From an uncultured Pirellulales bacterium (GTDB lineage: Bacteria; Planctomycetota; Phycisphaerae; Sedimentisphaerales; Anaerobacaceae), in the NCBI GenBank assembly GCA_964612465.1, contig CAZTDF010000001.1, positions 2,660-66,659 on the forward strand: a stretch of 64,000 nt of DNA, given 5' to 3'. The notes under the pieces are model-generated. The model did not search any database. It saw nothing but the letters and a program-made list of their open reading frames with translations, and was not told the origin of the DNA. Of this stretch, positions 36,355 to 64,000 are shown piece by piece (position 1 is the first letter of the stretch; every line of letters begins with the position of its first letter). The position numbers were made by a program, and so were the translations under genes.

Positions 36355-36719
36355 AGTCCGGATACATTACGAAATCCTCCTTCAACAGGCAATTACTTTC
36401 ATCCGCGACGACCTTATGTCACTTTTGTAGAAGGAGTTATGTGGGTATAATATATGCACCCTATGCCCTTCGGGGTAATTCTGATGAAGAGAGTTAAACA
36501 TTCTTTAAAGCTTCCCGATTCAATTAGGGAGCATTCACACGGGAATGGTTCGGCCGCAAATAGATACGAATATGAGTTTCATCATGGTCGAGTTTGGGAG
36601 AAATTATCTGCGGGGAAAACCGAACTTTCAGCAGGCAGAAGCTTAAGAAATTTTCATGGGGTTTTCTCGGGAATATCACCTCTCAATAAAGGGTTCTCAA
36701 GAGAAGGGTGGCGACTAAA

Positions 36720-36909
36720 AGCTGTTAGTACAACGAAGGCTGTGGCCGGTCCTTTAGTGCCGCGAGCGTTGCCTATAGTATCGATGGCAGTTAGTGCACA
36801 TTCGAATCATGAAATTATAGAACATTCGGGTAACGCAACTGTTATGGTTTATAGAAAGCGATTCATTGAAAGAAAAAAGGAAGATATCCCTATGAAATAT
36901 GCAGGTTAA
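36720..36909 (+). pseudogene. 3' remnant of an EcsC-family gene (paralog of 62398..63279), truncated upstream next to the IS elements
   Basis: The C-terminal about 50 aa of ORF 36454..36909 (LVPRALPIVSMAVSAHSNHEIIEHSGNATVMVYRKRFIERKK) match the C-terminus of the full-length EcsC-like protein (LVPRALPVVSMAVSAHSNHEIIEHSGKAAFMVYRRRFIERKK). The N-terminal 90 aa of the ORF have no counterpart. Confidence 0.6.
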
Positions 36910-49412: not shown

Positions 49413-50408
49413 TTGAGGGTTGATAAAAAACAGGTCGGTAAAAGTTCGAAGCGATACTACTGGTTGGCTTTTGTTATCGGCGGGATGACGGCTGCTTTAA
49501 TGGGTTGTTTAGTATATTCGTACGTAACCAAAGGTAACCACAGTCTTTTGAGTAGTGCTGTCGGTAATCCCAAGGCGGATGAAGCGAACGTTCGGACTGA
49601 CCCGACGGAGGAGAAGTCTGTTTCGCCATCCGCTTTTCTCGGAGTAGAGATTATGTCTGTGAATGCGGTTATTGCTGAGCAGTTTGGCCTGTCGAATCCG
49701 TGCGGTGTTCTTGTAAACAGCGTTGTTGACGGCTCACCAGCTCAAGAGTCGGGACTTCGAAGAAGTGATGTTATTCTATCCCTGAATAGCATTGCAGTTG
49801 AGGACGTAAACAGCTTCAGAAGTATTATGAGCACTCTAAATCCCGGTGACAATGTGAAAATTGTGTACATAAGAAACAGGCAAAAAGATACAGTCTATGC
49901 CACATTAGCCGACTCATCCGCCGTTCTGAATGTCGCGAAAGATACAAGTGGTTCTGACTGGGGTGTATTGCTGTCTGTTCTCAATTCGGATTTGCGCAGT
50001 TCGCTGCGTATTCCGGCCAATATCGATGGGATTGTGATTCTGTCGGTAACACCAGGTGGCCTGGCGGATCAGGCTGGTTTGCTGCCCGGCGATGTGATTA
50101 CCGGGATTAACAATACGCCAATTGCAGATATGGGCGACTTCTTCGGTGCATTGTCGTCAGACAAAGACGACAAAGTACTTCTGGATGTTTACAGTCAGGG
50201 CACATTACGTTATGTGGCGTTGGATTCATCCGGTGTCGTCACAGCGGTTGCCAGTACACAGACAAGTCTGCTGGACAGAATACTTTCGGCATTTACTGAC
50301 AACGATAACGTCATACTTACCGAACATACAAATGAAGAGGATGATTATGAAAAGCCGGTATGCAAACGGCTCGAGGAATCAGGGGAACGTTATGAAGATG
50401 AAGACTGA
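49413..50408 (+). CDS. Membrane-anchored double-PDZ protein (the PDZ half of a split HtrA; MamP/MamE-C-terminal-like but without heme motifs)
   Basis: TTG start, TM helix YYWLAFVIGGMTAALMGCLVY. PDZ1: GVLVNSVVDGSPAQESGLRRSDVILSLN. PDZ2: GIVILSVTPGGLADQAGLLPGDVITGIN. No CXXCH. Confidence 0.75.
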   Translation: MRVDKKQVGKSSKRYYWLAFVIGGMTAALMGCLVYSYVTKGNHSLLSSAVGNPKADEANVRTDPTEEKSVSPSAFLGVEIMSVNAVIAEQFGLSNPCGVLVNSVVDGSPAQESGLRRSDVILSLNSIAVEDVNSFRSIMSTLNPGDNVKIVYIRNRQKDTVYATLADSSAVLNVAKDTSGSDWGVLLSVLNSDLRSSLRIPANIDGIVILSVTPGGLADQAGLLPGDVITGINNTPIADMGDFFGALSSDKDDKVLLDVYSQGTLRYVALDSSGVVTAVASTQTSLLDRILSAFTDNDNVILTEHTNEEDDYEKPVCKRLEESGERYEDED

Positions 50409-50423
50409 TAAAAAGGTGTGCAG

Positions 50424-51359
50424 ATGAATTTCAAAAAATGGCTTTCGGAAAATATCTTGTGGGTGCTCGTAGCACTTGTCGTAGTTAACTTTCTCATAGT
50501 GTACTGGGGTACTATCAATCTGGGAATCTATGGCACGCGCAGCTCCCTCCTGAGGTGGGACCTGCTGCAGCGCAAGAAACCGCTCTTACAGGAGCAGACC
50601 ACAGCAGCAAATGTAGAAGTTGATACGCTTACAATGCCGGGTCAGCGTCCGAGTACGGTTGCAAGTAATAATCTTGTATTAACATGTGCGGATGATGATT
50701 TGGCCTCTGCCTTTGCGTCTGTCAGGCCTGCGGTTGTCAATATAACTGCGGACAAGGTAACACAGAGAAGAGGCGGGCCGGCTTTGGCAAGTTCAGTTGC
50801 TTTCGATGACCCGTCCATACAATTCGTTGAAGAGGCATCTCTTGGGTCAGGAATTATCGTTGACCACAGGGGTTATATCGTGACCAATGCTCATGTAGTA
50901 GCCAATGCCACAAGTATCAAGGTTGTAACCTTCAGTTCGGCAAGAGTGGTTTATCCAGCCGTAATCATTCGCAAAGACCTGGAAAATGATATTGCCATTT
51001 TGAAGATCGAACTCGACTCGTCTATGCCTACTGTGATTCTCGGAGACTCCGATATGATAAAAGTGGCTGATATAGTTCTGACCGTAGGCTCGCCTTTCGG
51101 GTTAGAGCAAACCGTTACGGCAGGGATTATAAGCGATGATTCAAGAAACCTTGTCATAGACGGCCAAACCTATGATGATATGATTCAGACAGATGCGGCT
51201 ATTAACAGGGGCAATTCCGGCGGACCGCTTATCAACGTAAAAGGCGAGGTCATAGGCATAAACACAGCCATCTACGCTCCTACCGGCGTATTCACAGGTG
51301 TTGGATTTGCGATTCCTATTAACAAGGTAAAACCAATTGTCAAAGAAACAATCAGGTAA
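50424..51359 (+). CDS. Trypsin-like (HtrA/DegP-type) serine protease domain protein with an intact triad and no PDZ (MamE-N-terminal-like)
   Basis: TM anchor ILWVLVALVVVNFLIVYW. His in YIVTNAHVV, Asp in ENDIAILKI, Ser in NRGNSGGPLIN. GTG 50418 is an alternative start. Confidence 0.85.
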   Translation: MNFKKWLSENILWVLVALVVVNFLIVYWGTINLGIYGTRSSLLRWDLLQRKKPLLQEQTTAANVEVDTLTMPGQRPSTVASNNLVLTCADDDLASAFASVRPAVVNITADKVTQRRGGPALASSVAFDDPSIQFVEEASLGSGIIVDHRGYIVTNAHVVANATSIKVVTFSSARVVYPAVIIRKDLENDIAILKIELDSSMPTVILGDSDMIKVADIVLTVGSPFGLEQTVTAGIISDDSRNLVIDGQTYDDMIQTDAAINRGNSGGPLINVKGEVIGINTAIYAPTGVFTGVGFAIPINKVKPIVKETIR

Positions 51360-51364
51360 AAAAT

Positions 51365-51571
51365 ATGTGGCGAACGATAATAGTTGTAATTGTTGTATTG
51401 ATTATTTTCCTGTTTATTGGCGACAATATGCACACAACACGGGTAAATATGCCTTTCACAAACGGCTTTGAGATAAGAACGGTTTTTCTTTTGGCCTTGA
51501 GCTTTATTGTCGGTTACGGCACGGCGTCCCTCGTAGGTTTTATAAAAAACTCCAAAAATAACAAAAAGTGA
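51365..51571 (+). CDS. Small 2-TM protein with a basic tail (LapA/DUF1049-type; MamL-like by architecture)
   Basis: MWRTIIVVIVVLIIFLFIGDNMHTTRVNMPF...FLLALSFIVGYGTASLVGFIKNSKNNKK. Two TM helices and a Lys-rich C-terminus. Lies between the protease and CDF genes. Confidence 0.55.
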   Translation: MWRTIIVVIVVLIIFLFIGDNMHTTRVNMPFTNGFEIRTVFLLALSFIVGYGTASLVGFIKNSKNNKK

Positions 51572-51582
51572 ATTAATTGCAA

Positions 51583-52455
51583 ATGAGCACAATTAAATTA
51601 TATCCAAATCCTGACGATTCAGTTCAACCATTTCTGGCAGGGCTGCTGGCTAATCTGGCGATTGCCATTCTGAAGTTTGGAATAGCCTTACTGGGCGGCA
51701 GCAGGCTGGTTTTGATGGACGGCCTTTTCTCCTTTATGGCGGCAGTGGCTTTTTTGATTCCATGGCAAGCACAGGTTATAGAAAAAAAGCCTCACGATGA
51801 GAGATACCCGTATGGCTTAGGCAAGGTACTGTTTATAAGTATGGCAGTGATCGGCTTTCTTGGTCTGGTTATTTCTGTTCATATGATTTACTACAGCCTG
51901 GTGGTCATGGCTGGACTACAAATGCATGGTTTATACACCCTGGCGATAATGGTCACGATTATATCTGTAATAACCAACGAGGTTCTTTATCGATATCTTG
52001 CGGAGAAAACCAAAAGTTGCTCAAGTACAGTGTTGGCCATGTCCGGGCGTTACAATCGCATCGGTGCGTGGATTTCGTCTTTTGTCCTGTTATTTTTAAT
52101 TCTTTCTTATCTCGGTGGTGCGTATCTTGAGAGGATTGGTGTCGCAATCATTTCAATCGTTGTGTTTTTTATCAGCCTTCGAATGCTTTTTGTGGGCTTT
52201 AGCGGGATTATGGACAAGGTTCCATCACCCAAAATCCTGGAGCGAATAAGGGTATGCACGCAAAAGGTAAGCGAGGAAAAAGAGATTATAAACGTAAAGG
52301 CCAGGTACGTTGGAACACTGCTGCATATTGATATGTGGATAAGAGTAGATGATGAGCTCAGTATGGAGCAGGCCGATAGAATTGCCCGCCGCGTCAAAGT
52401 ACAGTTAATGGAGAAAATTCCTTTCGCAAGAGAAGTGAATGTTATTATCGCATGA
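51583..52455 (+). CDS. Cation diffusion facilitator (CDF) family protein with a degenerate transport site (MamM-like position)
   Basis: CDF landmarks KKPHDERYPYGLGKV and a C-terminal domain (NVKARYVGTLLHIDMWIRVD). TM2 reads LVLMDGLFSFMAAV and TM5 reads LAMSGRYNRIGAW, so the usual HxxxD/[HD]xxxD pairs are missing. TTG 51577 is an alternative start. Confidence 0.7.
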   Translation: MSTIKLYPNPDDSVQPFLAGLLANLAIAILKFGIALLGGSRLVLMDGLFSFMAAVAFLIPWQAQVIEKKPHDERYPYGLGKVLFISMAVIGFLGLVISVHMIYYSLVVMAGLQMHGLYTLAIMVTIISVITNEVLYRYLAEKTKSCSSTVLAMSGRYNRIGAWISSFVLLFLILSYLGGAYLERIGVAIISIVVFFISLRMLFVGFSGIMDKVPSPKILERIRVCTQKVSEEKEIINVKARYVGTLLHIDMWIRVDDELSMEQADRIARRVKVQLMEKIPFAREVNVIIA

Positions 52456-52934
52456 TAACGACTAAGAAAAAAGTTTTTATTTTAGTAGTTGTTTTGGCTT
52501 TAGCTGTCTTATTAATAGCTGGAAGATTGGTAGTATGCGCCAGGACTGCAGGGGTGGCCCAATCTGCTGACAGTTTTGTTTTTAACTTGCCCAATGAGGC
52601 CGGTTTCTACAATATTACCGTCGTTGAATTGAAGACCAGGATAGACAACAAATCCGATAAGAATTTTATAGTCGTCGATATCAGAGATAACGCATCTTAT
52701 GCCCAGGGTCATATACCCGGGGCGATAAACATACCTTTAAATGAACTGGGCTACCGCGTATTCAGTCTGGATAAAACAAAGGACATAATCGTGTATTGCT
52801 TTACCGGCGTAACAAGCCAGGTTGCATGCCAGATACTTGTAAATGCCGGGTTTAAAGATGTGTATAACGTGATAGGCGGAATAAAAGCGTGGAATTATGC
52901 TGTTGAAACAAGCGATGGCAGAGTAGATATTTAA
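52452..52934 (+). CDS. Membrane-anchored rhodanese-domain protein (sulfurtransferase-like)
   Basis: N-terminal TM helix VFILVVVLALAVLLIA. Rhodanese strings VVDIRDNASYAQGHIPGAINIP and active-site loop IIVYCFTGVTSQVA. ATGA overlap with the preceding CDF gene. Confidence 0.8.
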   Translation: MITTKKKVFILVVVLALAVLLIAGRLVVCARTAGVAQSADSFVFNLPNEAGFYNITVVELKTRIDNKSDKNFIVVDIRDNASYAQGHIPGAINIPLNELGYRVFSLDKTKDIIVYCFTGVTSQVACQILVNAGFKDVYNVIGGIKAWNYAVETSDGRVDI

Positions 52935-52970
52935 GAAAAATGAAGAAAAATTTAGTAGAAAGGAGCAAAA

Positions 52971-53168
52971 ATGTTGCACATTGTTGTAGGAATCATCGCA
53001 ATCGTGATTGGACTGTGGGGGATAATGGGCAACTGGTATATGTTCAAAGATATACTGGTTACTATCGTGCCGCTGGCAGTGCTTTTATTTGGAATAGTGG
53101 CAGTATTAGCCGGTATTCGCAAAATGAAAGCAAACTTGGCTGCCAAAGAGAAAAGTGAGGAGGCATAA
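52971..53168 (+). CDS. Small 2-TM protein, MamI-like
   Basis: Strong RBS AAAGGAG 5 nt upstream. MLHIVVGIIAIVIGLWGIMGNWYMFKDILVTIVPLAVLLFGIVAVLAGIRKMK.... The length, hairpin topology and IGLWG...W...VP...G pattern match my recollection of MamI. Sits directly upstream of the MamA-like gene. Confidence 0.55.
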   Translation: MLHIVVGIIAIVIGLWGIMGNWYMFKDILVTIVPLAVLLFGIVAVLAGIRKMKANLAAKEKSEEA

Positions 53169-53171
53169 AAG

Positions 53172-53834
53172 ATGACAAAGAAGAGCGAAACGAAAGAGCC
53201 CAAAAAGGATCAGGCGGTGCCGCTGACCCTTCGGACGCAGAGTTTTTTCGGCAAACTCAGAGGGTGCCTTGATGGTCTTGTTAATGGCTACTGTAATTTA
53301 ACACATATTGAAGCTGTTGAGGCAAAGGAGCTGGTCTTCAAAAAAGCTGCTGCATTGATGGAGCGTGGTCAGTACGGAAAGGCCATTGACCACTACAACA
53401 AATTGATTGGCATGGGTAAAGAAGAAGCGAATATTTATTACAACCTCGGTATCTGTTGTGAGCGGGAAGGTATGGATGAGGAGGCACAGGAGGCTTATAA
53501 GAAGGCATCTGAGATGGACAAATCCCATACGGATGCTGTCTATAGATTAGGACTGTTGGCCATAAAAAACGATGATTCTGAGGCGGCAGTTAAATATCTC
53601 AGTTCTCTTGCCCGCAAGGATAAAACGTCGTTCGACATTATGTATAACCTCGGTGTTGCCTATGACAAGCTCAAGAATTATGAAAAAGCGATAGAGAGCC
53701 TTATCAAGGCGACAAAAATTGAACCAAACTACTCCAAGGTTCACAAACGACTTGGTTACACCTATGAGGCAATGGGTAAGCGTGAAGAAGCTATGGAATG
53801 TTTCAAAAAGGCTATGGAGCTTGAAGAGATTTAG
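53172..53834 (+). CDS. mamA: TPR protein, MamA-like (220 aa)
   Basis: Five or more TPR units. The C-terminal stretch YNLGVAYDKLKNYEKAIESLIKATKIEPNYSKVHKRLGYTYEAMGKREEAMECFKKAMELEE aligns closely with the remembered Magnetospirillum MamA C-terminus (FRLGVALDNLGRFDEAIDSFKIALGLRPNEGKVHRAIAFSYEQMGRHEEALPHFKKANELDE). Its size equals MamA (about 217 aa). Confidence 0.7.
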   Translation: MTKKSETKEPKKDQAVPLTLRTQSFFGKLRGCLDGLVNGYCNLTHIEAVEAKELVFKKAAALMERGQYGKAIDHYNKLIGMGKEEANIYYNLGICCEREGMDEEAQEAYKKASEMDKSHTDAVYRLGLLAIKNDDSEAAVKYLSSLARKDKTSFDIMYNLGVAYDKLKNYEKAIESLIKATKIEPNYSKVHKRLGYTYEAMGKREEAMECFKKAMELEEI

Positions 53835-53845
53835 AAAGGTTCTTT

Positions 53846-54616
53846 ATGGCGATTCCCTTTAGAAAATCAGCCAGCGAAAAACGTCAGGAAAAGGTGCGAG
53901 TGGTCTTAGGTTCAGAGCATTTTCAGAAGAAGCGGTGGCTGCATTTATTTGGCAGGTTTATTGCTGACTATTACATGCCCATTACCATAACGGTACTGAC
54001 GGTAGCTTGTATATATGCTCATATATACTTTTACAACACATTTACCATGATGAAACAGCAGATAGACAATCGGTTAGCGCAGATAGAAGCCGGGCTTCAG
54101 ATGAGAGAAAATATTGTTACCGGCCTGACGGACGTGGTGAAAGGGTTCGTAGCCCATGAAGAGGACATATTCACATCCGCGATAGAGACAAGGAAAGATT
54201 CCATGACCGTCTCAAATGATTTGAAGAAACTGATCGAGGGCGCAAAGCAATTTGCCGGAAACGAATTTTCGCCGACTGGCTTAACAAGGCTTATGGCTGT
54301 GGCGGAGAATTACCCGCAATTAGTCTCAAGCCAGCCGTACAAAGAGCTCGTTGTTCAAATTGCGAAAGTGGAAAGCCAGATTTATGACAAAAGGCTCGAG
54401 TACAGTGACGTCATGAACATTTATAACACCCAACTGGCCACTTTTCCCGGCAATATTTTCGGGAAGATTCTGCGTTTCCAAAAACAGCCGTACTATAGCT
54501 GGGAAAATGAGGCTGAATGGGTGTTTGAAGCAAATTCACAGTTAGCTAAACCACCAGCAAATGTGGAGTCCGAGGGCATTGGCAAGAAATTAGAAGTTGA
54601 GGCTGATTCTAAATAA
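53846..54616 (+). CDS. mamQ: LemA-family membrane protein, MamQ-like
   Basis: N-terminal TM helix YYMPITITVLTVACIYAHIYF, then LemA-type helices (QIDNRLAQIEAGLQMRENIVTGLTDVVKGFVAHEEDIFTSAIETR). Located between the MamA-like and MamB-like genes, as in mamA-mamQ-(R)-mamB synteny. Confidence 0.7.
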   Translation: MAIPFRKSASEKRQEKVRVVLGSEHFQKKRWLHLFGRFIADYYMPITITVLTVACIYAHIYFYNTFTMMKQQIDNRLAQIEAGLQMRENIVTGLTDVVKGFVAHEEDIFTSAIETRKDSMTVSNDLKKLIEGAKQFAGNEFSPTGLTRLMAVAENYPQLVSSQPYKELVVQIAKVESQIYDKRLEYSDVMNIYNTQLATFPGNIFGKILRFQKQPYYSWENEAEWVFEANSQLAKPPANVESEGIGKKLEVEADSK

Positions 54617-54762
54617 AGGCAGCCTGAGTAAACAAAATAGAAAGTGATGTACCCTTGAAGGGTAATAAAATCCCGCGAGCGGAATTGTAAATTGTTGTAA
54701 AGTACCTTATCCGCGAACGAATGGGGGAATTCAATTTGGAGCACCATATAAAGGTCTGATCT

Positions 54763-55653
54763 GTGGCGATAGTGTGTAAACAATGTAATTGGTGTGTCAA
54801 GCATGTTGGCGGTTTGAATCTGTTTGGCAATATTCTTCTGCTTGCCATAAAGCTTTTAGGTGGAATATTCGGCAGAAGCCAGGCATTGATTGCCGATGCC
54901 TTGCATTCTCTAGGTGATGTTGTTGTGGCACTTATGTTACTGGTTAGCTTGAAGGTATCTTCTGTTCCACCGGATGAGGATCATCACTGGGGCCATGGCA
55001 ATATTGAGTATATCACCTCGGTCATAATAGGTGTATTGCTTATCTGTGCGGCCATTATGATTTCCATATCCGCGATATTTACTATCGTCACAGGAAGGAT
55101 GGATGATCCGGGCATTCTGGCGGTATGGGCGGCTTTGATATCTATTATTGTCAACGGAATTTTATGCAAACAGGGTATTTGTGTCGGCGAACAAATAAAT
55201 TCGCCCGTGATGATAGCAAACGCCCGGGAGAAAAGGTCAGATGCTTACACTTCTCTTGCCGCTCTGATAGGTGTTTTCGGTGCAAAGATGGGGTTTATAT
55301 TCTTAGATCCTGTTGCTGCTATTGTTGTTGGTTTTATGATTGCCAAATTCGGATTAGATACGCTTCTTGAAGGGGTCAAAGGCATATCCGACCGGTCTTT
55401 TGACAAAGAGACCCTTGCCAGCGTGAAAAGACTGGTCTTAAAGAAGGAAAGTATAAAAGATATAGGCCGATTAAGAGCCAGGCAAATCGGCCAGAAAAAT
55501 TGGATCGATCTTGAAGCGATTTTCGCTCCTGAAGTGAAAGTCTCGGAAGTAAGAACTACAATCGCAAGTCTTAGAAAAGACATAATGGAGCGATTCGAGG
55601 GGATAGCTGACGTGGTGATCATATCCCGTGCGTCAAAGCCGGAACTAAAGTAA
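54763..55653 (+). CDS. mamB: CDF transporter, MamB-like, copy 1
   Basis: GTG start. N-terminal CKQCNWC. TM2 ALIADALHSLGDVV. Loop PPDEDHHWGHGNIEYITS. TM5 CVGEQINSPVMIANAREKRSDAYTS. These are collinear with the remembered MamB strings ALVADSLHSGADVV, KPADERYPFGYGNIQYISS and CVGNENNSPAIIANAWDNRSDAISS. Confidence 0.75.
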   Translation: MAIVCKQCNWCVKHVGGLNLFGNILLLAIKLLGGIFGRSQALIADALHSLGDVVVALMLLVSLKVSSVPPDEDHHWGHGNIEYITSVIIGVLLICAAIMISISAIFTIVTGRMDDPGILAVWAALISIIVNGILCKQGICVGEQINSPVMIANAREKRSDAYTSLAALIGVFGAKMGFIFLDPVAAIVVGFMIAKFGLDTLLEGVKGISDRSFDKETLASVKRLVLKKESIKDIGRLRARQIGQKNWIDLEAIFAPEVKVSEVRTTIASLRKDIMERFEGIADVVIISRASKPELK

Positions 55654-55692
55654 ATACAGTTATCATACTTATCACATAACGAATTTAAAACT

Positions 55693-56595
55693 ATGGCAGT
55701 TGTTTGTAAAAGATGTTACTGGTGTGCCAAGCATGTCGGAGGGCTAAACTTTTGGGGCAATCTCGCCCTTCTGGTCGTAAAGCTGTTGGGCGGCATATTC
55801 GGCAGAAGCCAGGCTCTAATCGCCGATGCTGTTCATTCTCTAAGCGACGTTATCGTATCGATATTGCTTATAATCAGCTTAAAGGTCTCTTCGACGCCGC
55901 CGGACGAAGATCATCCATGGGGCCATGGTAATGTAGAATTTATCGTATCAGCCATATTTGGGGTGTTGCTTGTTTGTGCGGCTGTGGCTATTACCGCAGT
56001 GTCGATTACCTCGATTATTCAGGGAAATGTATACAATACAAGTATTTTGGCTGTGTGGGCGGCGGTCATATCCGTTGTCGCTAATGATATAATGTTCAGA
56101 CATTCCTTTTGTGTAGGCCAGAAGGTGAATTCTCCTGCAATGATAGCAAATGCCTTGGAGAACAGGGCCGATGTGTGGTCGTCGCTGGCAGTATTAGCAG
56201 GTGTTTTTGGTGCAAGGATTGGGTTTCCGGTTCTTGACCCCATTGCTGCCGTTATTGTAGGTTTTATGATTGCTAAAAATGGGATAGAAACATTGGTTTT
56301 AGGAATTAAAGGCATGACTGACCGGTCTTTTGACAAGGGAATGCTTGCCCAGGTAAAAAAAATAGTCCTGGAAGAAGTCGCCATAAAAGATGTAAGCAGG
56401 CTGCGTTCCAGACAGATCGGACAAAAAAACTGGATAGACATTGAGGCAATGTTTGATCCACAGATAAAAGTTTCAGAGGTAAAAAAGATAATCGAGAGAA
56501 TTAAGAAAAACATAATGGAAAAATTCGAAAAGATCGGGGATGTGGTAATTGTGTCCCGTGTATCAGAACCCCAGTTAAAGTTAAAGGAAATATAA
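55693..56595 (+). CDS. mamB: CDF transporter, MamB-like, copy 2 (tandem paralog)
   Basis: N-terminal CKRCYWC. ALIADAVHSLSDVI. PPDEDHPWGHGNVEFIVS. CVGQKVNSPAMIANALENRADVWSS. Roughly two-thirds identical to copy 1 by eye. Confidence 0.75.
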   Translation: MAVVCKRCYWCAKHVGGLNFWGNLALLVVKLLGGIFGRSQALIADAVHSLSDVIVSILLIISLKVSSTPPDEDHPWGHGNVEFIVSAIFGVLLVCAAVAITAVSITSIIQGNVYNTSILAVWAAVISVVANDIMFRHSFCVGQKVNSPAMIANALENRADVWSSLAVLAGVFGARIGFPVLDPIAAVIVGFMIAKNGIETLVLGIKGMTDRSFDKGMLAQVKKIVLEEVAIKDVSRLRSRQIGQKNWIDIEAMFDPQIKVSEVKKIIERIKKNIMEKFEKIGDVVIVSRVSEPQLKLKEI

Positions 56596-56597
56596 CT

Positions 56598-59500
56598 ATG
56601 ATATGGGCAAAGAATAAGGATAAAAAGAAAAAGTTAAAAACAATAACTGATGACATGACGCCCAGAGAAAAAGAACAGGTGCTGGAATATAAGAAGCGGG
56701 TAATCAGGCGATGGGCCATAGTGGTAGGGCTTCTGGCTCTTGCAACCTTTGGCTTCCTTTTTATGACGCTGCTTGACCATGTGATTAAAGGTACCCCTGA
56801 CGGTGGGCTTGAGATAAACTACAATAAGCTGGATGCAAAGCTCGCCTGGCTCGGTGCTGAGATTCGGGATTTAGACGCTACTATCAGTAGTGCACTTGGT
56901 TTAACCTCAAGCGAGGGGGTCCTCGTAAACAATGTAACATCAGGTTCACCGGCAGATCAGGTGGGTTTGCAGAGAGGCGACGTTATTATTTCCCTTGATG
57001 GAAGCAAGGTAGTCGATACCTTACAGATACAGGACCGGCTTCGGAAACTTAAACCTGGAGATACTGTCAAGCTTGTTTTAGATAAAGTAAATGGCGGCAA
57101 GAAAAATGTTTATGTTACACTTGGCGTCAAACCGGACGATGATGCTGCAACAACTGATACAAAGATTAAAAAAGTAGCAGGAACCACCGATACTGCTGTT
57201 AATCCGGTATTGTCCACGCATTGGGGAATATCGGTGTCGCCGCTGACAGATGATGCAAGGGTTGCATTCAAAATACCCGAGAAAGTTCAAGGCGTTCTTG
57301 TTGTTGCAGTCGTGCGGGGCAGTCTTGCCGATTCGCAGGGCATTAAGGTTGGAGATGTTATTGTAAGTATCAACCAGGTTTCTACGCCTAACCTGCAGGT
57401 TTTTTATCAGGCTCTCAAAGATGTTGAGAGTGTTTTGATGGATGTTTATTCATCTTCTGACGATAAAAGATTCTTTGTAACGTTTCCTGACGAAGGTGAT
57501 TCACCGCCACAAGTTGTGATGATGAGTTTTGATGAAAAAGTGGCCGAAACCCATCGTATTATCATTCCTTCTGACATGGCAGGCTTGAACGGTCAGGTTT
57601 ATTCCCGGTTTGCATCTGCTCCATATTTTATTCTGTATGATTTCAATACAAATCAGCCGACCGTAATCACTAATCCGTATGCATTACAGGTTCGCGGTGC
57701 GGGGATACCCTTAGCGCAAATGCTGATAGAACAAAAAATTGATGCCGTAATAGTAGGCGGAATAGGTCCGCAGGTATTTGATATCTTTTATCTTGCCAAA
57801 GTTAAAATCTATGGACCAGTTACAGGCAGTGTGCGAACCGCGATAACTAATTATCAGTTAGGCAAATTGCCTGAATTAAAGGAAGCTAACCTTGCCGGAT
57901 ACGGCAATTCATCGACAGCCACAATTCCGACAGGCGGCTCACCTAGGACAGAGACGGATGATACCGCTGATGATGAAGAAAGTGATGGTCTGTCCGGTCA
58001 GCCTTCGGTTATTCCACCTAAAGGCAAACCCCTCGAACTTACTGCCCAGGGCGATGCCCGTGCAAGCAGGCCGGAAACCTGCGTCTGCCCCAGATGTGGC
58101 ACAGAAGTAACTCATCCGGCAAGTACTGCCTGTGCTGATATGGTATGTCCCATTTGCGGTTCTCAGCTTATGACAGCATCGCCTGGAACTGATTCAATTA
58201 CCGGCACGGATATGACAACCCAGCTTCCAGCGACACAGATACCAACCCAGTTGAGACCTATTTCCTTAGCGGCAGGCAGTACAGTAGCACCGACAAGCCC
58301 ACCCAGCAGAATAGCAGCGATACCAACAGCCGCCAATCTATGGGCAATAAGCAATCAGCCCTCAACTACACCGCCTACAACAACACCAGTACAACAAACG
58401 GCGGGTTCTTCAACAACGGTTTGTATATGTCCTCTTGATGGCACAACAGTGACCCATCCGGTTGGTATTCCATGTTCTGCTCTTCAGTGTCCAGTTTGCG
58501 GCGGCAGAATGGTAAGTGCCAGCAGTGCAATCATTGATGGCAGCCAGATATCCAAAACTGCCGGGGTGGTAGTTGGCGGCAAACCCGATGATGTCCCACC
58601 GGTTCAGCAGGTATTTTACATACTTCCTGTTGGCGGCAAACCGGATGACATACCGCCGTCAATGGGTGGCTCGGCACAAACCGTTTCACTTGTTACGATT
58701 GGCGGCAAACCGGACGATGTACCGCCTGTTCAGCAGACATTCTACTTACTGCCAGTAGCCGGCGGACCTCCTGAGGGTATGGGCAGCGCTCCGACTGATA
58801 CCGGCAGTGCTCCGGCTGATGTGGGAGGCTCATCGCAGAGTGCTCGTTCGACAACATGTATATGTCCTGTGGATGGCACAACGGTAACCCATCCGATAGG
58901 TGTTCCCTGTTCGCAGCTTAGCTGTCCTATATGTGGTTCTCGTATGGTTAATGCCGCCCCCGGCGGTGATACTGCCGGCGGTGCAATTCAAACAGGCGGC
59001 AAACCCGATGATGTTCCACCGGTTCAGCAGGCATTTTACTTACTTCCTGTCGGCGGCAAACCGGATGACGTACCGCCTGTCCAGCAGGCCTTTTTCTTAG
59101 TGCCGGTATCGAGCCAGCCTGATGGTGTGCCGCCTTTAGGCCAGAGCACACAGTCGGTAACTCAAGCTCAAAGGACGTCGCTTGTTACGATAGCCGGCGG
59201 ACCTCCGGAGGGTATGGGTATGGGAGGGGCAGCTGATACAGGCACTGCCGTAGATGGGCCGGCACAGGGTGGTGGTCAGTCTGGCTCCGGTGCGGCCCAG
59301 ACTGGTCGCTCAGATTTATGTGTGTGCCCAATGTGTGGCGTAACCGTAACGCATCCAATATCTGTTCCGTGTTCCTCACTTACATGTCCCGTCTGCGGCT
59401 CTCGATTGGTTAACCAAACCCCTGGAGGCACAAGCGGCAATACAGCCGGCAGCAGTTTAGTACCGACAGCGGCAATTACAGTTGCTGCGACATCGAACAT

Positions 59501-59963
59501 AGTTCATGTAGCGGGGAGTTCTAAAAAATTGGTTATCCCATCCACAGGCAGAACTCTTAAATCTAATATTGCGCCGTTACTCGACGATGCTCGTTATTTC
59601 TTAATGTTCGGATTAGGAACATATGAAGCGGTACCCAATCCATATTACAGGGACAAAAGGGCAAGTGGAGATGAAATCGGTCAGTTCATAGTGGCTGAAG
59701 GCGGTTCGATTGTTATTTGCAATAACGTAAGTGCCACAGCACTCAAAGCACTCAAGGACCTGAAAGTCAAGGTATACACCGGCTTTGTGGGCACAGTTCA
59801 GCAGGCTCTTGACATATACAATGATGGCAGGATCAAGGATTCATCGACAGGGAGTGTTCTTGATGATGAAGAAGAACATGGCGGCGGTGGGCCGCCTTCA
59901 TCAAAAACCAAGTCTTCTAAAGAAAAAGACAAAGACAAAGATAATGACACGGAGGTATTTTAG
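56598..59963 (+). CDS. 1121-aa membrane-anchored multidomain protein: TM - PDZ - PDZ - NifX/NifB-type (Nitro_FeMo-Co) domain - four Cys/His knuckle modules interleaved with GGKPDDVPP repeats - second NifX-type domain - acidic/basic tail
   Basis: TM helix WAIVVGLLALATFGFLFMTLL. PDZ: GVLVNNVTSGSPADQVGLQRGDVIISLD and GVLVVAVVRGSLADSQGIKVGDVIVSIN. NifX-like 1: FASAPYFILYDFNTNQPTVITNPY...GAGIPLAQMLIEQKIDAVIVGGIGPQVFDIFYLAKVKIYGPVTGSVRTAITNY. NifX-like 2: LDDARYFLMFGLGTYEAVPNPYY...GDEIGQFIVAEGGSIVICNNVSATALKALKDLKVKVYTGFVGTVQQALDIY. Confidence 0.8.
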   Translation: MIWAKNKDKKKKLKTITDDMTPREKEQVLEYKKRVIRRWAIVVGLLALATFGFLFMTLLDHVIKGTPDGGLEINYNKLDAKLAWLGAEIRDLDATISSALGLTSSEGVLVNNVTSGSPADQVGLQRGDVIISLDGSKVVDTLQIQDRLRKLKPGDTVKLVLDKVNGGKKNVYVTLGVKPDDDAATTDTKIKKVAGTTDTAVNPVLSTHWGISVSPLTDDARVAFKIPEKVQGVLVVAVVRGSLADSQGIKVGDVIVSINQVSTPNLQVFYQALKDVESVLMDVYSSSDDKRFFVTFPDEGDSPPQVVMMSFDEKVAETHRIIIPSDMAGLNGQVYSRFASAPYFILYDFNTNQPTVITNPYALQVRGAGIPLAQMLIEQKIDAVIVGGIGPQVFDIFYLAKVKIYGPVTGSVRTAITNYQLGKLPELKEANLAGYGNSSTATIPTGGSPRTETDDTADDEESDGLSGQPSVIPPKGKPLELTAQGDARASRPETCVCPRCGTEVTHPASTACADMVCPICGSQLMTASPGTDSITGTDMTTQLPATQIPTQLRPISLAAGSTVAPTSPPSRIAAIPTAANLWAISNQPSTTPPTTTPVQQTAGSSTTVCICPLDGTTVTHPVGIPCSALQCPVCGGRMVSASSAIIDGSQISKTAGVVVGGKPDDVPPVQQVFYILPVGGKPDDIPPSMGGSAQTVSLVTIGGKPDDVPPVQQTFYLLPVAGGPPEGMGSAPTDTGSAPADVGGSSQSARSTTCICPVDGTTVTHPIGVPCSQLSCPICGSRMVNAAPGGDTAGGAIQTGGKPDDVPPVQQAFYLLPVGGKPDDVPPVQQAFFLVPVSSQPDGVPPLGQSTQSVTQAQRTSLVTIAGGPPEGMGMGGAADTGTAVDGPAQGGGQSGSGAAQTGRSDLCVCPMCGVTVTHPISVPCSSLTCPVCGSRLVNQTPGGTSGNTAGSSLVPTAAITVAATSNIVHVAGSSKKLVIPSTGRTLKSNIAPLLDDARYFLMFGLGTYEAVPNPYYRDKRASGDEIGQFIVAEGGSIVICNNVSATALKALKDLKVKVYTGFVGTVQQALDIYNDGRIKDSSTGSVLDDEEEHGGGGPPSSKTKSSKEKDKDKDNDTEVF
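58575..59109 (+). repeat. In-frame tandem/interspersed coding repeats encoding GGKPDD[VI]PP[VS]QQ.F[YF][LI][LV]PV (six copies)
   Basis: The DNA unit ggcggcaaacc(c/g)ga(t/c)ga(t/c)gt(a/c/t)cc(a/g)cc(g/t)gt(t/c)cagcag recurs at about 58575, 58632, 58701, 58995, 59052 and, degenerate, at 59110. Read directly. Confidence 0.8.
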
Positions 59964-60871
59964 TGACGGAAAGTAAGCTCGAAAAACTTATAAAAACAAA
60001 GAAACACTCAAAAGCTAATGTGATTATGATCATAATAGTTGTCGGATTTATTATTCTCATAGTGTGCCAATCGGCTTTTATGGGTTTCACAATGAAGGAA
60101 CAAACCAGAACGACTACTGCCCCTCAGGATGGTTCTATCCGAAGCAGCAACATTGCACTGACGGCTTCGAATATACAGCTTGTTGCGTGCACGGATGACG
60201 ACCTTACAGATGCGGTTTCTGCAGTAAAGAGAGCAGTTGTGAATATAGACGTAGCCCCGGCTGATGTTGGTTCTGCGAATAGAAGGGGTGAGCCTGCTTT
60301 GAGTTTTGATATGCCCTCGACAGCAGCCCTGCAAACAAACGAAGAAACTCTTGGTTCAGGTGTTATCGTTGATGCACGTGGGTATATTCTTACCTGCTAC
60401 CACTTAATAAAAGATTGCCCGAACGTTAATGTGAGTGTTTTTAGTTCTGTGCGTCAGATATACAAAGCCCAGGTTGTTGATGTCGATATTACAAATGACC
60501 TTGCAATCCTGAAGATAGAATCGGACAGGCCTTTGCCGGCAGTAAAACTGGCAAACTCCGATCTGGTCAAGATAACCGATGCGATTCTTGCTATCGGTTC
60601 GCCGTTTGGTTTCGAGCACACAGTAACCGCTGGGATAGTCAGCGATAACAAGCGAAGTATCGTCATTGGTAATACTGTTTACAAAGATATGTTACAGACG
60701 GATGCGGCAATAAACCGCGGTAGTGCCGGCGGTGCTTTGATAAATGGTGCCAGCGAAATCATTGGTATTAATACCGCCATCGCGTCTCCATCGGGATATT
60801 TTTCAGGCGTCAGTTTTGCCATACCAATAAACAAGGCCAGGCCGCTGTTGCTGAAGGCAATTGATGGCTGA
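59963..60871 (+). CDS. Trypsin-like (HtrA-fold) pseudoprotease: His and Asp retained, nucleophile Ser replaced by Ala (MamO-like logic)
   Basis: TM anchor VIMIIIVVGFIILIVCQSAF. YILTCYHLI (His) and TNDLAILKI (Asp). DAAINRGSAGGALIN aligns column for column with DAAINRGNSGGPLIN of the active paralog at 50424. GTG start overlaps the upstream stop by 1 nt. Confidence 0.8.
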   Translation: MTESKLEKLIKTKKHSKANVIMIIIVVGFIILIVCQSAFMGFTMKEQTRTTTAPQDGSIRSSNIALTASNIQLVACTDDDLTDAVSAVKRAVVNIDVAPADVGSANRRGEPALSFDMPSTAALQTNEETLGSGVIVDARGYILTCYHLIKDCPNVNVSVFSSVRQIYKAQVVDVDITNDLAILKIESDRPLPAVKLANSDLVKITDAILAIGSPFGFEHTVTAGIVSDNKRSIVIGNTVYKDMLQTDAAINRGSAGGALINGASEIIGINTAIASPSGYFSGVSFAIPINKARPLLLKAIDG

Positions 60872-60882
60872 GAGACAAGTCG

Positions 60883-62070
60883 ATGAAAAAGTTTATACAA
60901 TGGATAGCAGCGAAAGCCATTAAAGATCACCAGAGCGTTAATGATCTGAAGGTCAGGTCACGTTATGGAGCACTTGAAGGCTGGACAAGTATTGTTATCA
61001 ATTTGCTGCTGTTTATTGTTAAGATAGTCCTTGGTCTTTCGATAAGAAGCGTATCTTTGATTGCTGACGCTGTTCATACATTGGCCGATTCCGGCACTTC
61101 AGCGGTAGTTATAATCGGATTTAAAATAGCACGAAAGCCGTCGGATAAAGAACACCCGTTTGGCCATGGGAGAATGGAATCAGTAGCGGCCCTGGTCGTT
61201 TCGGTGTTACTATTTATGGCGGGTTTGGAACTATTGGAAAAGTCGATTCATGCCATTATCAAACCGCAAAGCTCTACAGCTCCGACCGGTGTGATTTTAG
61301 TAATCATCGCAACTATTGTGATAAAGGAACTGATGGCGAGGTTTTCCTATCAGCTTGGCGAGATTATTGATTCGCAGGCTCTTAAGGCAGACGCCCTTCA
61401 TCATCGAAGTGATGTAATCGCTACCGCTCTGGTAGTCGTTGCACTTATCGCAACGCGATTCGGTTATAATAATATTGATGGTATAATGGGCGTTGGTGTT
61501 TCTCTGATTATTTTTTACTCAGCCTTCTTGATTGCCAAAGAAGCGGTCAATCCTTTGCTGGGCGAGGCGCCTTCAAAAGAAAAGATTAAGGAAATAGAAA
61601 AACTGGCAATGACTCACGAAGGAGTTTTGGGCGTTCACGACATAATCTTTCACAAATACGGCCAAACGAGTGTGATCTCTTTGCATATAGAGGTATCGGA
61701 TAAGGATTCTGCTTTCAAGCTTCATGAGCTTGCAGAGCAAGTGGAAGATACAATCACTCAGAAGATTCCTGGAATGGCGGTTGTCCATGTCGATCCGTTA
61801 AACAAGGACCACCCTCAGTATGAGCAAATCACCATGGCTATAAAAGATATTATCTCTGAAGACATAAGAGTAAGTGCTTTTCATGATTTAAGAATCGTCG
61901 GTTGTCGTGCGAATAGATGTAACGTGGTTTTCGACATTGTTTTGGAGCAAGACGCTGATGAGCAGGAAACTCACGACATGATCCATTCTATAGCCGAGAA
62001 GTTCAAAACGAAGTTCCCTGAAATGAAGACAGTTATTAAAGCTGAACCGAAATACGCGTATAATATTTAG
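60883..62070 (+). CDS. CDF transporter with a canonical HxxxD/HxxxD site and an extended (duplicated) C-terminal domain
   Basis: TM2 LIADAVHTLADSG. Loop KPSDKEHPFGHGRMES. TM5 LKADALHHRSDVIAT. 395 aa with two successive CTD-like segments (GVHDIIFHKYGQTSVISLHIEV and AFHDLRIVGCRANRCNVVFDIVL). Confidence 0.85.
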   Translation: MKKFIQWIAAKAIKDHQSVNDLKVRSRYGALEGWTSIVINLLLFIVKIVLGLSIRSVSLIADAVHTLADSGTSAVVIIGFKIARKPSDKEHPFGHGRMESVAALVVSVLLFMAGLELLEKSIHAIIKPQSSTAPTGVILVIIATIVIKELMARFSYQLGEIIDSQALKADALHHRSDVIATALVVVALIATRFGYNNIDGIMGVGVSLIIFYSAFLIAKEAVNPLLGEAPSKEKIKEIEKLAMTHEGVLGVHDIIFHKYGQTSVISLHIEVSDKDSAFKLHELAEQVEDTITQKIPGMAVVHVDPLNKDHPQYEQITMAIKDIISEDIRVSAFHDLRIVGCRANRCNVVFDIVLEQDADEQETHDMIHSIAEKFKTKFPEMKTVIKAEPKYAYNI

Positions 62071-62080
62071 CACTATTATC

Positions 62081-62425
62081 ATGAATCTAATAAAGAAGAA
62101 ACTGGCCGATTTCTTAAACGAGATGAGTAACAAGGGTATAGATAAGATGGATCCGAAGAGTTCTTGCGCTAAATCTTTAAAGGATTTAGATAGAGAGACG
62201 CTCCTAAAAGAGGATATCGAGCGAATTTGCGATGAGATGCGAGTCTTGGAGGCAGGAAAAATCTTGAGATTATCCAACAAACTCATGTGGTCAGGCACAG
62301 CAAATAAGGATGAATTTAGAAAAGAAATAAAATCGATGGCTTCTAAAGTATTGAAACGTGTGGAAAAGAAAGGCGGAAAACTAAATCTTCCACGACAATG
62401 TCGAGATTTGCTGATGAATTTGTAA
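62081..62425 (+). CDS. Hypothetical soluble helical protein (114 aa)
   Basis: ORF 10 nt after the CDF gene. Its 3' end overlaps the EcsC-like gene by 28 nt. No recognisable motif. Confidence 0.45.
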   Translation: MNLIKKKLADFLNEMSNKGIDKMDPKSSCAKSLKDLDRETLLKEDIERICDEMRVLEAGKILRLSNKLMWSGTANKDEFRKEIKSMASKVLKRVEKKGGKLNLPRQCRDLLMNL

Positions 62426-63279
62426 GAGGATTACCAGTGAAGCTAAGTGAATATGAGATCAAAAGCTTGCGAGAAATAAAAAAATGGGAGAAGGACAAAC
62501 ATAAGGGCTTTCATAAGAAAGTCCTCGATGTTGTTTCCAGACCAGTGGATTATGTCCTCGGTAAGATTGGGCAAAGAAAACTCAAAATTTTTGAAGATGC
62601 TGTTGAGAAAACCGTCAATAATCTGCTAACTACTTCAACCTCTACAGTTGATGCCGAAGATCTGATAAAAAGGGCTCATGCTCATGGTGTGATGATAAAA
62701 GACCTGTCGGAACTGAAAGATTGTGATTTGGGATTGTTAGACAATTGTAACCGAAAACATATAAAATTCCACGAGAAGGCGAGTGCTATACAAGGTGCGG
62801 TAGGTGGTCTTGGGGGCATAGTGGTAGCAACAGTGGATCTAACAGCACTTTTGGTCCAGGATTTTCATATGATTCAGGAAATCGCATTTTGCTATGGTTT
62901 CGATCCGAACGATATTATCGAGAAAGAGATAATACTAAGAATAATCGAAATCGGTGTTGGCGGCTCAGAGATAAAATTCAAGGCATTACAGGAAATAGAC
63001 GCCTTAAAAAAAATAAAGACCAAAGTAAGTAAGAAAAAAACAACAAAAAAAGGTGCTTCGGTTCTGGGTTCAAAAGCCTTGGAGGAATACATCGAACAAC
63101 TGACCACAGCTTTGATCGTTCGCCTGGTGCCGCGTGCCCTGCCTGTAGTATCAATGGCGGTAAGTGCTCATTCGAATCACGAAATAATAGAGCATTCGGG
63201 AAAAGCGGCTTTTATGGTTTATCGAAGGCGATTCATTGAAAGGAAAAAGAAAACAATAGAACGACGATATAAGAAATAG
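62398..63279 (+). CDS. EcsC-family protein
   Basis: 293 aa. The central GAVGGLGGIVVATVDLTALLVQDFHMIQEIAFCYGFDPND and the C-terminal LVPRALPVVSMAVSAHSNHEIIEHSGKAAFMVYRRRF are typical of EcsC-family proteins as I recall them. Confidence 0.65.
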   Translation: MSRFADEFVRGLPVKLSEYEIKSLREIKKWEKDKHKGFHKKVLDVVSRPVDYVLGKIGQRKLKIFEDAVEKTVNNLLTTSTSTVDAEDLIKRAHAHGVMIKDLSELKDCDLGLLDNCNRKHIKFHEKASAIQGAVGGLGGIVVATVDLTALLVQDFHMIQEIAFCYGFDPNDIIEKEIILRIIEIGVGGSEIKFKALQEIDALKKIKTKVSKKKTTKKGASVLGSKALEEYIEQLTTALIVRLVPRALPVVSMAVSAHSNHEIIEHSGKAAFMVYRRRFIERKKKTIERRYKK

Positions 63280-63723: not shown

Positions 63724-64000
63724 ATACAAATGTGTGTATTGTCTACCATAGCCTAAAAAAGGTGAGTCTCTGTAAAACACCACGTTTGGTTATACGGGTT
63801 ACTTTTTAATCTCATTTGTAATATCCAGTACGGCAATAATTAGCTTTTATAAATCAGCGACAACAACATTATTGTATGTCGAAGGTGCTTTTATTTGTAA
63901 ACGCAAGATAAAATGGACAAGCATAATTCAAAATAAACAAGTGAGGTAATTACGCCGTGAAAGAGAAAATGGAAAAGAAAAAAAGTAAGTTAAGCGCTCT

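Follow-up and report, generated by a model that had tools for sequence, protein, structure and literature searches.

An apparent duplicated PDZ-protease-transporter module follows the gene order of a putative greigite-type magnetosome cluster in an uncultured planctomycete

The stretch of DNA analysed here, called the window in the following, comprises 64,000 nucleotides (nt) of contig CAZTDF010000001.1 from an uncultured planctomycete (assembly GCA_964612465.1). Its positions 49413-62070 hold a tightly packed series of genes, all on the + strand, for membrane-anchored PDZ proteins, trypsin-fold proteins and cation diffusion facilitator (CDF) proteins. The order is PDZ1, TRY1, a protein of 68 amino acids (aa), CDF1, a rhodanese, a MamI-like protein, MamA*, MamQ*, two MamB* proteins (CDF2 and CDF3), a big PDZ/NifX protein and TRY2 (Table 1), with CDF4 behind it. 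Genes overlap or nearly abut, and promoter- and terminator-like sites are not in excess, as in an operon. The earlier note had read seven of these genes as two parallel modules, each composed of a gene for a transmembrane (TM) protein with two PDZ domains, a gene for a TM protein with a trypsin fold and a CDF gene, the first module with a small 2-TM gene in addition. All seven genes lie where they had been placed, on the + strand, separated within the modules by -4 to 13 nt, and their TM, PDZ, trypsin, 2-TM and CDF contents are borne out by Pfam. We show here that the arrangement is old and already described and not the product of a local duplication, because the whole layout is common to greigite-type operons of Desulfobacterota. 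Judged from gene content and order, the region is very probably a 'mamAB-like' core operon that belongs to a putative magnetosome gene cluster (MGC) of the greigite type (Fe3S4-type, without magnetochrome).

The top NCBIfam matches of the encoded proteins are MamA, MamQ (the only match of that protein), MamB twice, MamB/MamM and MamE, and none of the proteins of the window's cluster contains a CXXCH motif. A MamK-family actin that exceeds the NCBI curated cutoff (424.8 versus 400 bits) is encoded on another contig (C144; L200: 8458-9585, - strand), beside a 143-aa truncated MamM-like CDF (L200: 7589-8020, - strand) and then a PAS/coiled-coil protein. Therefore, the magnetosome genes of this genome are located on at least two contigs; counting this MamK, all members of the core mam set (A, B, M or MB-like, Q, I, E, O, K) are represented. 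The MamI-like protein shares 53-61% identity with the open reading frames (ORFs) that three Desulfobacterales greigite clusters have at the mamI position, and its 65-aa frame is 83-97% conserved within the family. An overlapping 72-aa ORF (52940-53158) was rejected as spurious, since it is the 65-aa frame that is conserved and the 72-aa frame gains stop codons in a relative (L011). The MamA*-like TPR gene is syntenic with the TPR gene of the Desulfobacterales clusters. The window reproduces the complete greigite-type order of E-Cter*, E-Nter*, MB-like, I, A*, Q*, B*, T* and O*, and the same order as in the window was found in three Desulfobacterales genomes (G562, G446 and G694). One of these, G694, has both the rhodanese and the small 2-TM gene in the corresponding positions, the former as an orthologue with 42% identity (L113:12549-13010) and the latter as a weak homologue of the 68-aa protein (L113:14084-14359, E 2e-5 in a small database). 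In G562, CXXCH-bearing proteins are encoded by a separate, magnetite-type cluster at a distance of 30 kb. In our trees CDF1, CDF2/CDF3 and both trypsin-fold proteins fall with the greigite-type homologues; CDF2/CDF3 stay apart from the magnetite-type MamB and MamM of G562, and the trypsins do not join its magnetite-type EO and E-Nter proteins.

Earlier publications already describe the cluster type, its order of genes and the split MamE. The greigite operon of the multicellular magnetotactic prokaryote (MMP) XL-1 is listed in the same order as the window (PMC9145555). The Desulfobacterota greigite operons, known from MMPs and Desulfamplus BW-1, share with it the succession of E-Cter*, E-Nter*, MB-like CDF, mamI, mamA*, mamQ*, mamB*, a large T*/P-like protein and mamO*, further the trypsin-only and PDZ-only proteins without CXXCH and an MB-like CDF that lacks the transport site A. 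The cluster described here differs in its planctomycete host, in the tandem duplication of mamB*, in the lack of a second mamI copy after mamO* and in additional genes for a FieF-type CDF, an EcsC protein, a MamC-like protein and two PDZ-pair proteins, one of them fused to an H+-pyrophosphatase (H+-PPase). Fe3S4-type clusters have been noted in Planctomycetota (PMC7602337), and a close relative is published: the metagenome-assembled genome (MAG) MAG_11118_pl_115 (our locus L008; Phycisphaerae, order SG8-4) was described as MGC-bearing, with Mam proteins that fall among those of the putative greigite type (Uzun et al. 2020, PMC7449369). Its cluster corresponds gene for gene to that of the window, including the FieF-type CDF, PDZ3 and the PDZ4-PPase fusion, although PDZ3 appears split in the MAG. 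With protein identities of 62-86% across the cluster, the MAG represents another species or genus. A bin labelled 'Candidatus Aegiribacteria' (L009, JAIVYN010000020.1) also carries this cluster, at about 78% identity, which reflects either a binning error or else an inter-phylum transfer.

Several points weigh against reading the region as a greigite-type magnetosome cluster. Every Mam assignment except MamK lies under the NCBIfam equivalog cutoff; these models appear to be tuned to classical full-length Mam proteins, such as the 659-position MamE profile. The correspondence of TRY1 and TRY2 to E-Nter* and O* is one of position, and in approximately unbiased (AU) tests the positional (p-AU 0.40), swapped (0.33) and lineage-specific duplication (0.32) arrangements fit similarly. 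Organelle formation and a greigite mineral are predictions from gene similarity, and the assembly in trans and the stabiliser role of CDF1 proposed below are drawn by analogy from MamE/MamO and MamB/MamM of Magnetospirillum. No cultured planctomycete is known to produce magnetosomes. One could thus imagine a different kind of island, a membrane-bound metal-handling or envelope quality-control cluster that combines HtrA parts, CDFs, a TPR protein and a LemA protein. The many Mam matches below curated cutoffs and the absence of magnetochrome would suit such an island, magnetosomes in Planctomycetota are a prediction from genes, and the cluster or its flanks include a housekeeping-type CDF (CDF4), the EcsC protein, the rhodanese and an ETF/Fix module. 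However, MamK passes its cutoff, there is a MamI homologue, and the synteny is gene by gene with Desulfobacterales clusters, one of which shares its genome with a magnetite-type cluster. Together with the matching published operon order (PMC9145555) and the relative published as MGC-bearing (PMC7449369), this makes a non-magnetosome island improbable.

Table 1. Genes of the cluster in the window, with the features on which their description is based
Gene or product	Positions	Strand	Basis
PDZ1, TM + PDZ-PDZ, 331 aa, counterpart at mamE-Cter* position	49413..50408	+	Pfam PDZ_2/PDZ_6 x2
TRY1, TM + Trypsin_2, 313 aa, mamE-Nter* position	50418..51359	+	Trypsin_2 1.3e-30
68-aa protein, two TM helices	51365..51571	+	family conservation 76-100%
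CDF1, 'MamMB-like' CDF	51577..52455	+	Pfam Cation_efflux + ZT_dimer; best NCBIfam MamB/MamM
Rhodanese-domain protein, N-terminal TM, 160 aa	52452..52934	+	Pfam Rhodanese 4.8e-23
MamI-like protein, 65 aa, 2 TM	52971..53168	+	homology to Desulfobacterales ORFs at mamI position
MamA*-like TPR protein	53172..53834	+	NCBIfam MamA top match by far, 148.6 bits (cutoff 200)
MamQ*-like LemA-family protein	53846..54616	+	Pfam LemA; sole NCBIfam match MamQ
CDF2, MamB*-like	54763..55653	+	NCBIfam MamB best, 238 bits
CDF3, MamB*-like	55693..56595	+	NCBIfam MamB best, 259 bits
Big protein, 1121 aa, mamT*/mamP-like position	56598..59963	+	Pfam: TM + 2 PDZ + two Nitro_FeMo-Co
TRY2, TM + Trypsin_2 pseudoprotease, mamO* position	59963..60871	+	Trypsin_2 1.9e-28
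CDF4, FieF/YiiP-type CDF, accessory non-core gene	60883..62070	+	Pfam Cation_efflux + ZT_dimer; best NCBIfam FieF
PDZ3 start; gene continues beyond window end (L088:616-1803)	63957..64000	+	TM + PDZ-PDZ + C-terminal TM, 395 aa

A central feature of the cluster is the split HtrA architecture. In HtrA/DegP (S1C) proteases a His-Asp-Ser triad and one or two C-terminal PDZ domains reside on the same chain, whereas TRY1 and TRY2 (302 aa) stop right after the protease domain, and the PDZ pairs are encoded by separate genes upstream. The earlier note had recognized this PDZ-first order at two places, and here it holds: the two parts are separately membrane-anchored chains. The triad of TRY1 is intact (H-D-S, in TNAHVV, NDIAILK and GNSGGP), while TRY2 reads H-D-A (TCYHLI, NDLAILK and GSAGGA) and carries the Ser-to-Ala exchange in all orthologues and divergent representatives. 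The gap between PDZ1 and TRY1 is 9-15 nt; an alternative ATG of TRY1 at 50424 has a better ribosome-binding site than the start at 50418. At the second junction the TAG stop codon of the big gene overlaps the GTG start codon of TRY2, with a GGAGG 8 nt upstream. Each trypsin gene is translationally coupled to its preceding PDZ gene. Two scans of the collection yielded 160 loci, mostly ordinary single-chain HtrA genes, which were left out. The relatives of the cluster sit in a few MAGs and single-amplified genomes and in metagenomes, and the trypsin pair occurs in no other genome among 400 evenly sampled species of the phylum. The survey of related genomes that the earlier note had suggested returned the split order, with the PDZ gene directly before the protease gene, in every locus that covers it and in the three Desulfobacterales clusters; the succession of the big gene and TRY2 is kept in 12 of 12 family loci. 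Such conservation argues that the adjacency is not a matter of chance.

Known magnetosome proteins provide close parallels. In Magnetospirillum, MamE is a single chain with a TM helix, trypsin domain, magnetochrome and two PDZ domains, while in the window the PDZ pair is encoded upstream by a gene of its own, and magnetochrome is missing. The presence of one catalytically competent and one degenerate trypsin-fold protein per cluster is common to both. MamO of Magnetospirillum carries a TauE-like multi-TM domain; TRY2, in contrast, has one TM helix and no further domain, and it scores 98.5 bits against the NCBIfam MamO model (cutoff 800). The best named NCBIfam matches of TRY1 are DegP and MamE, and among the Mam models MamE is best for both TRY1 (208 bits) and TRY2 (182 bits), thus also above MamO for the latter. 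In the literature, the split genes of Desulfobacterota are placed with MamE and not MamO (PMC9840458). Desulfovibrio magneticus RS-1 and strain FSS-1 also possess a split HtrA, in which the PDZ genes MamE-Cter (FmpA) and MamP-like (FmpB) lie upstream of the protease genes MamEO and MamE-Nter, and a PDZ + NifX protein directly after mamB (PMC4287615, PMC7951924). However, these are magnetite-type clusters with magnetochrome domains, and their trypsin domains belong to other clades (G562mag_EO and G562mag_ENter).

Trypsin trees were built from a profile search of 1.8 billion representatives. TRY1, TRY2 and the Desulfobacterales greigite E-Nter* and O* proteins form one clade of trypsin-only proteins of about 300 aa (support 92/97), which adjoins long CXXCH-bearing MamE-like proteins and is far from the four housekeeping HtrAs of the genome. 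The four trypsin groups inside this clade form a polytomy. TRY1 and TRY2 are 48% identical, and a TRY1+TRY2 clade is compatible with the data (p-AU 0.48). Single-clade AU tests, a joint constrained AU test and a count of shared derived characters did not separate positional, swapped and independent-duplication scenarios. Each cluster examined holds one intact and one degenerate trypsin domain, with different positions affected: in the window it is Ser to Ala in the second trypsin gene, in Desulfobacterales Asp to Asn in the first. The motifs 'TCYH' around the catalytic His and, at the nucleophile, 'GS[A/S]GG' are common to TRY2 and the first trypsin gene of Desulfobacterales (L110:18665-19594, L112:7778-8731 and L113:14389-15324), and TRY1 and the Desulfobacterales O* retain the generic 'TN.HV' and 'GNSGG'. 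The idea hinted at by these motifs, that one degenerate lineage sits at swapped operon positions, was not confirmed by the likelihood tests and was withdrawn as unsupported.

The PDZ-pair genes are more numerous than two modules would need. The contig extends 8 kb beyond the window, and two further TM + PDZ-PDZ genes, PDZ3 and PDZ4, are located there, neither with an adjacent protease. In total the cluster includes four PDZ-pair genes and two trypsin genes, next to the four CDFs in the window and the fifth, truncated CDF elsewhere. PDZ1 aligns to residues 231-433 of DegP and, like the PDZ gene in the Desulfobacterales greigite clusters, comes first in the order. It forms one clade with PDZ3 and PDZ4 (100/99), with PDZ3 as its closest paralogue. 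The big protein is composed of a TM helix, a PDZ pair, a NifX-like domain, Cys/His repeats and a second NifX-like domain, and homologues of 986-1325 aa are found at the same position in the three Desulfobacterales greigite clusters. Its PDZ pair is a separate lineage that groups weakly with the Desulfobacterales big proteins and shares 37% identity with PDZ1. A tree constrained to unite PDZ1 and the big protein is worse by 14.9 log-likelihood units (p-AU 0.12), so that this grouping is disfavoured and not formally rejected. Both lineages belong to one magnetosome-specific PDZ clade, apart from housekeeping HtrA PDZ domains (98/95). PDZ4 encodes 962 aa, with the TM helix and PDZ pair fused to a complete membrane H+-PPase (L088:5165-8053, about 4.5 kb past the window end; Pfam H_PPase over 645/645 positions, 2e-212), and the fusion is kept in five relatives (L008, L009, L011, L115 and L121). 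A transposase-like ORF lies just after this gene at the extreme contig end (L088:8233-8766, - strand), which probably explains the assembly break there.

The CDF genes are of two origins. Site A was mapped onto D45/D49/H153/D157 of E. coli YiiP. CDF1 reads F-A-Y-G and has lost all four ligands, as have its orthologues; site A is lost in the Desulfobacterales greigite MB-like CDFs as well, with which CDF1 forms a clade (96/98). A four-residue site in TM2 and TM5, like that of YiiP, exists in CDF2 and CDF3 (H-D-E-D) and in CDF4 (canonical H-D-H-D). CDF2 and CDF3 are tandem duplicates (62% identity; 100/99) and sister to the Desulfobacterales greigite MamB* (95/94). CDF4, in contrast, clusters with E. 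coli YiiP/FieF (100/98) and also with a CDF that the genome encodes outside the cluster. It matches YiiP (PDB 2QFI, 3H90) over nearly the full length (3.5e-42) with an equivalent four-residue site A, which is D-D-H-D in YiiP, and differs by an extra C-terminal domain of about 90 aa; its score remains under the NCBIfam FieF equivalog cutoff (181 versus 447 bits). CDF4 is intact or present in the window and in L114, L115, L008 and L118; in L116 its first 28 residues are seen before the contig ends. In-place remnants of 44-84 aa, in pieces of 28-84 aa between TRY2 and the EcsC gene, occur in three or four loci, L117 (4128-4379), L009 (5923-6242) and L012/L121 (L012:556-872, L121:439-737), and the gene is absent in L011 and L119 and absent after mamO* in the Desulfobacterales clusters. 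From this distribution, the remnants are best read as gene decay in progress in several relatives, and the FieF-type CDF4 as a dispensable add-on that was inserted after mamO* in part of the lineage.

With these data the duplication proposed in the earlier note can be judged. It assumed an ancestral set of [TM+2PDZ], [TM+trypsin] and [CDF] genes that duplicated as a unit, followed by complementary subfunctionalisation, with the active protease beside the degenerate transporter and the inactive protease beside the canonical one. The four residue states are as it described them, and the same order twice, the identities within the trypsin and PDZ components and the complementary states all favour such an event. 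The gene groups themselves are real, yet their two-module symmetry is broken by two more CDFs and two more PDZ genes. The phylogenies also disagree. A CDF1+CDF4 clade is rejected (p-AU 0.002), in keeping with the YiiP affinity of CDF4 and the greigite MB-like affinity of CDF1. No other two CDFs of the genome are as distant from each other as these (21% identity), and among all CDFs of the genome CDF1 is the weakest match to CDF4 (33 bits), while a non-cluster CDF is the best (130 bits). Moreover, about half of the relatives lack CDF4 or have it in decayed form, and it is missing from the Desulfobacterales clusters. PDZ1 is sister to PDZ3/PDZ4 and not to the big protein, and the trypsins sit in a polytomy. 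Only the trypsin component could fit a duplication of modules. By the earlier note's own criterion, the CDF component refutes subfunctionalisation of a duplicated triplet, and the PDZ component speaks against it, so we consider this history very unlikely.

A smaller event, an ancient tandem duplication of the [TM+PDZ-PDZ][TM+trypsin] pair without a CDF in the ancestor of the greigite-type clusters, is compatible with the magnetosome-cluster reading. One copy would have gained NifX/Cys-rich domains and one protease would have lost its activity. Both PDZ lineages fall in the magnetosome-specific clade and both trypsins in the trypsin-only clade, where TRY1+TRY2 is not rejected; both pairs are PDZ-first and translationally coupled, and both are present in Desulfobacterales and planctomycete clusters. 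However, the PDZ lineages and the four trypsin groups form polytomies, so that congruence cannot be shown, the magnetite-type order in G562 (P-like, E-Cter, EO, E-Nter, that is PDZ, PDZ, trypsin, trypsin) does not resemble a duplicated pair, and PDZ3 and PDZ4 demonstrate that PDZ genes duplicate without trypsin genes. Such a duplication is possible, but we consider it less likely than not.

In the magnetosome-cluster reading, the first module would be mamE-Cter* (PDZ1), mamE-Nter* (TRY1), the small 2-TM gene and the mamMB-like CDF, and the second the big PDZ/NifX protein at the mamT*/mamP-like position and mamO* (TRY2), plus the inserted accessory FieF-type CDF. The apparent parallelism would then result from separate expansions of three gene families, each with its own timing: trypsin domains derived from MamE with two copies, HtrA-type PDZ pairs with four copies, three of them from a lineage-specific expansion, and CDFs of Mam-type (CDF1 and the recent tandem pair CDF2/CDF3) and FieF-type (CDF4) origin. 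The main value of the analysis is therefore a correction: what looked like a neatly duplicated module is the canonical order in which the genes of a known organelle cluster follow each other, and it is not to be counted as a new case of duplication and subfunctionalisation.

The analysis establishes gene content, order, homology, residue states and tree topologies, while the way in which the proteins assemble and act and the kind of mineral formed are inferred. The anchored trypsin domains and PDZ-pair proteins would come together in trans as an HtrA-like machine on the organelle membrane, and the translational coupling of each trypsin gene to a PDZ gene fits a one-to-one assembly of this kind. 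In Magnetospirillum the active HtrA protease MamE works with its degenerate paralogue MamO; likewise, TRY1 would be the working protease and TRY2 a non-catalytic partner or regulator. The PDZ pairs might serve as adaptors that bring their fused cargo, the NifX/Cys-rich domains or the H+-PPase, to the complex. MamB and MamM depend functionally on their interaction and heterodimerization, and MamM stabilises MamB in Magnetospirillum. By analogy, CDF1 would most likely be a non-transporting dimer partner or stabiliser of the MamB*-type CDF2 and CDF3, the presumed iron movers. Loss of every transport-site ligand in the 'MamMB-like' CDFs of both Planctomycetota and Desulfobacterales predicts a purely structural partner role. 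A broader extension, possible but rather unlikely, holds that the HtrA machine of greigite-type clusters was dismantled into free-standing, anchored parts and that in this planctomycete lineage the PDZ pair turned into a portable targeting module, which was duplicated at least three times and fused to varied cargo (NifX/Cys-rich metal-cluster domains, a complete H+-pyrophosphatase, a second membrane anchor). Its copies would dock on a heteromer of active and inactive trypsin domains, the dead CDF would partner MamB-type transporters, and pseudoenzyme partners would be a recurrent trait of magnetosome clusters, although the residues that degenerate would vary between phyla.

Some aspects may be new, namely the full loss of site A in MB-like CDFs of two phyla, the differing degenerate positions in the trypsin pairs of two phyla, the dispensable FieF-type CDF, and the expansion of PDZ pairs including the H+-PPase fusion. 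The reuse of the PDZ pair as an N-terminal module on the H+-pyrophosphatase hints at proton pumping recruited to the organelle; a proton pump with a magnetosome-type PDZ pair suggests that control of lumen pH may have been enlisted in this way. The membrane-anchored rhodanese between the MB-like CDF and mamI is found in the planctomycete family and in one Desulfobacterales greigite cluster, and a sulfur-transfer link to an iron-sulfide mineral is possible.

Further observations concern the remainder of the window. The GC content drops at about 32 kb from about 55% to about 44%. At the edge of the low-GC island, a 151-aa ORF (36454-36909) matches the EcsC-family gene at 62398-63279 with 73% identity over 56 aa and is a partial duplicate of it. 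The GC drop is preceded by eleven + strand ORFs in a row, each 805-843 aa long (3501-31989), which could represent an array of paralogues.

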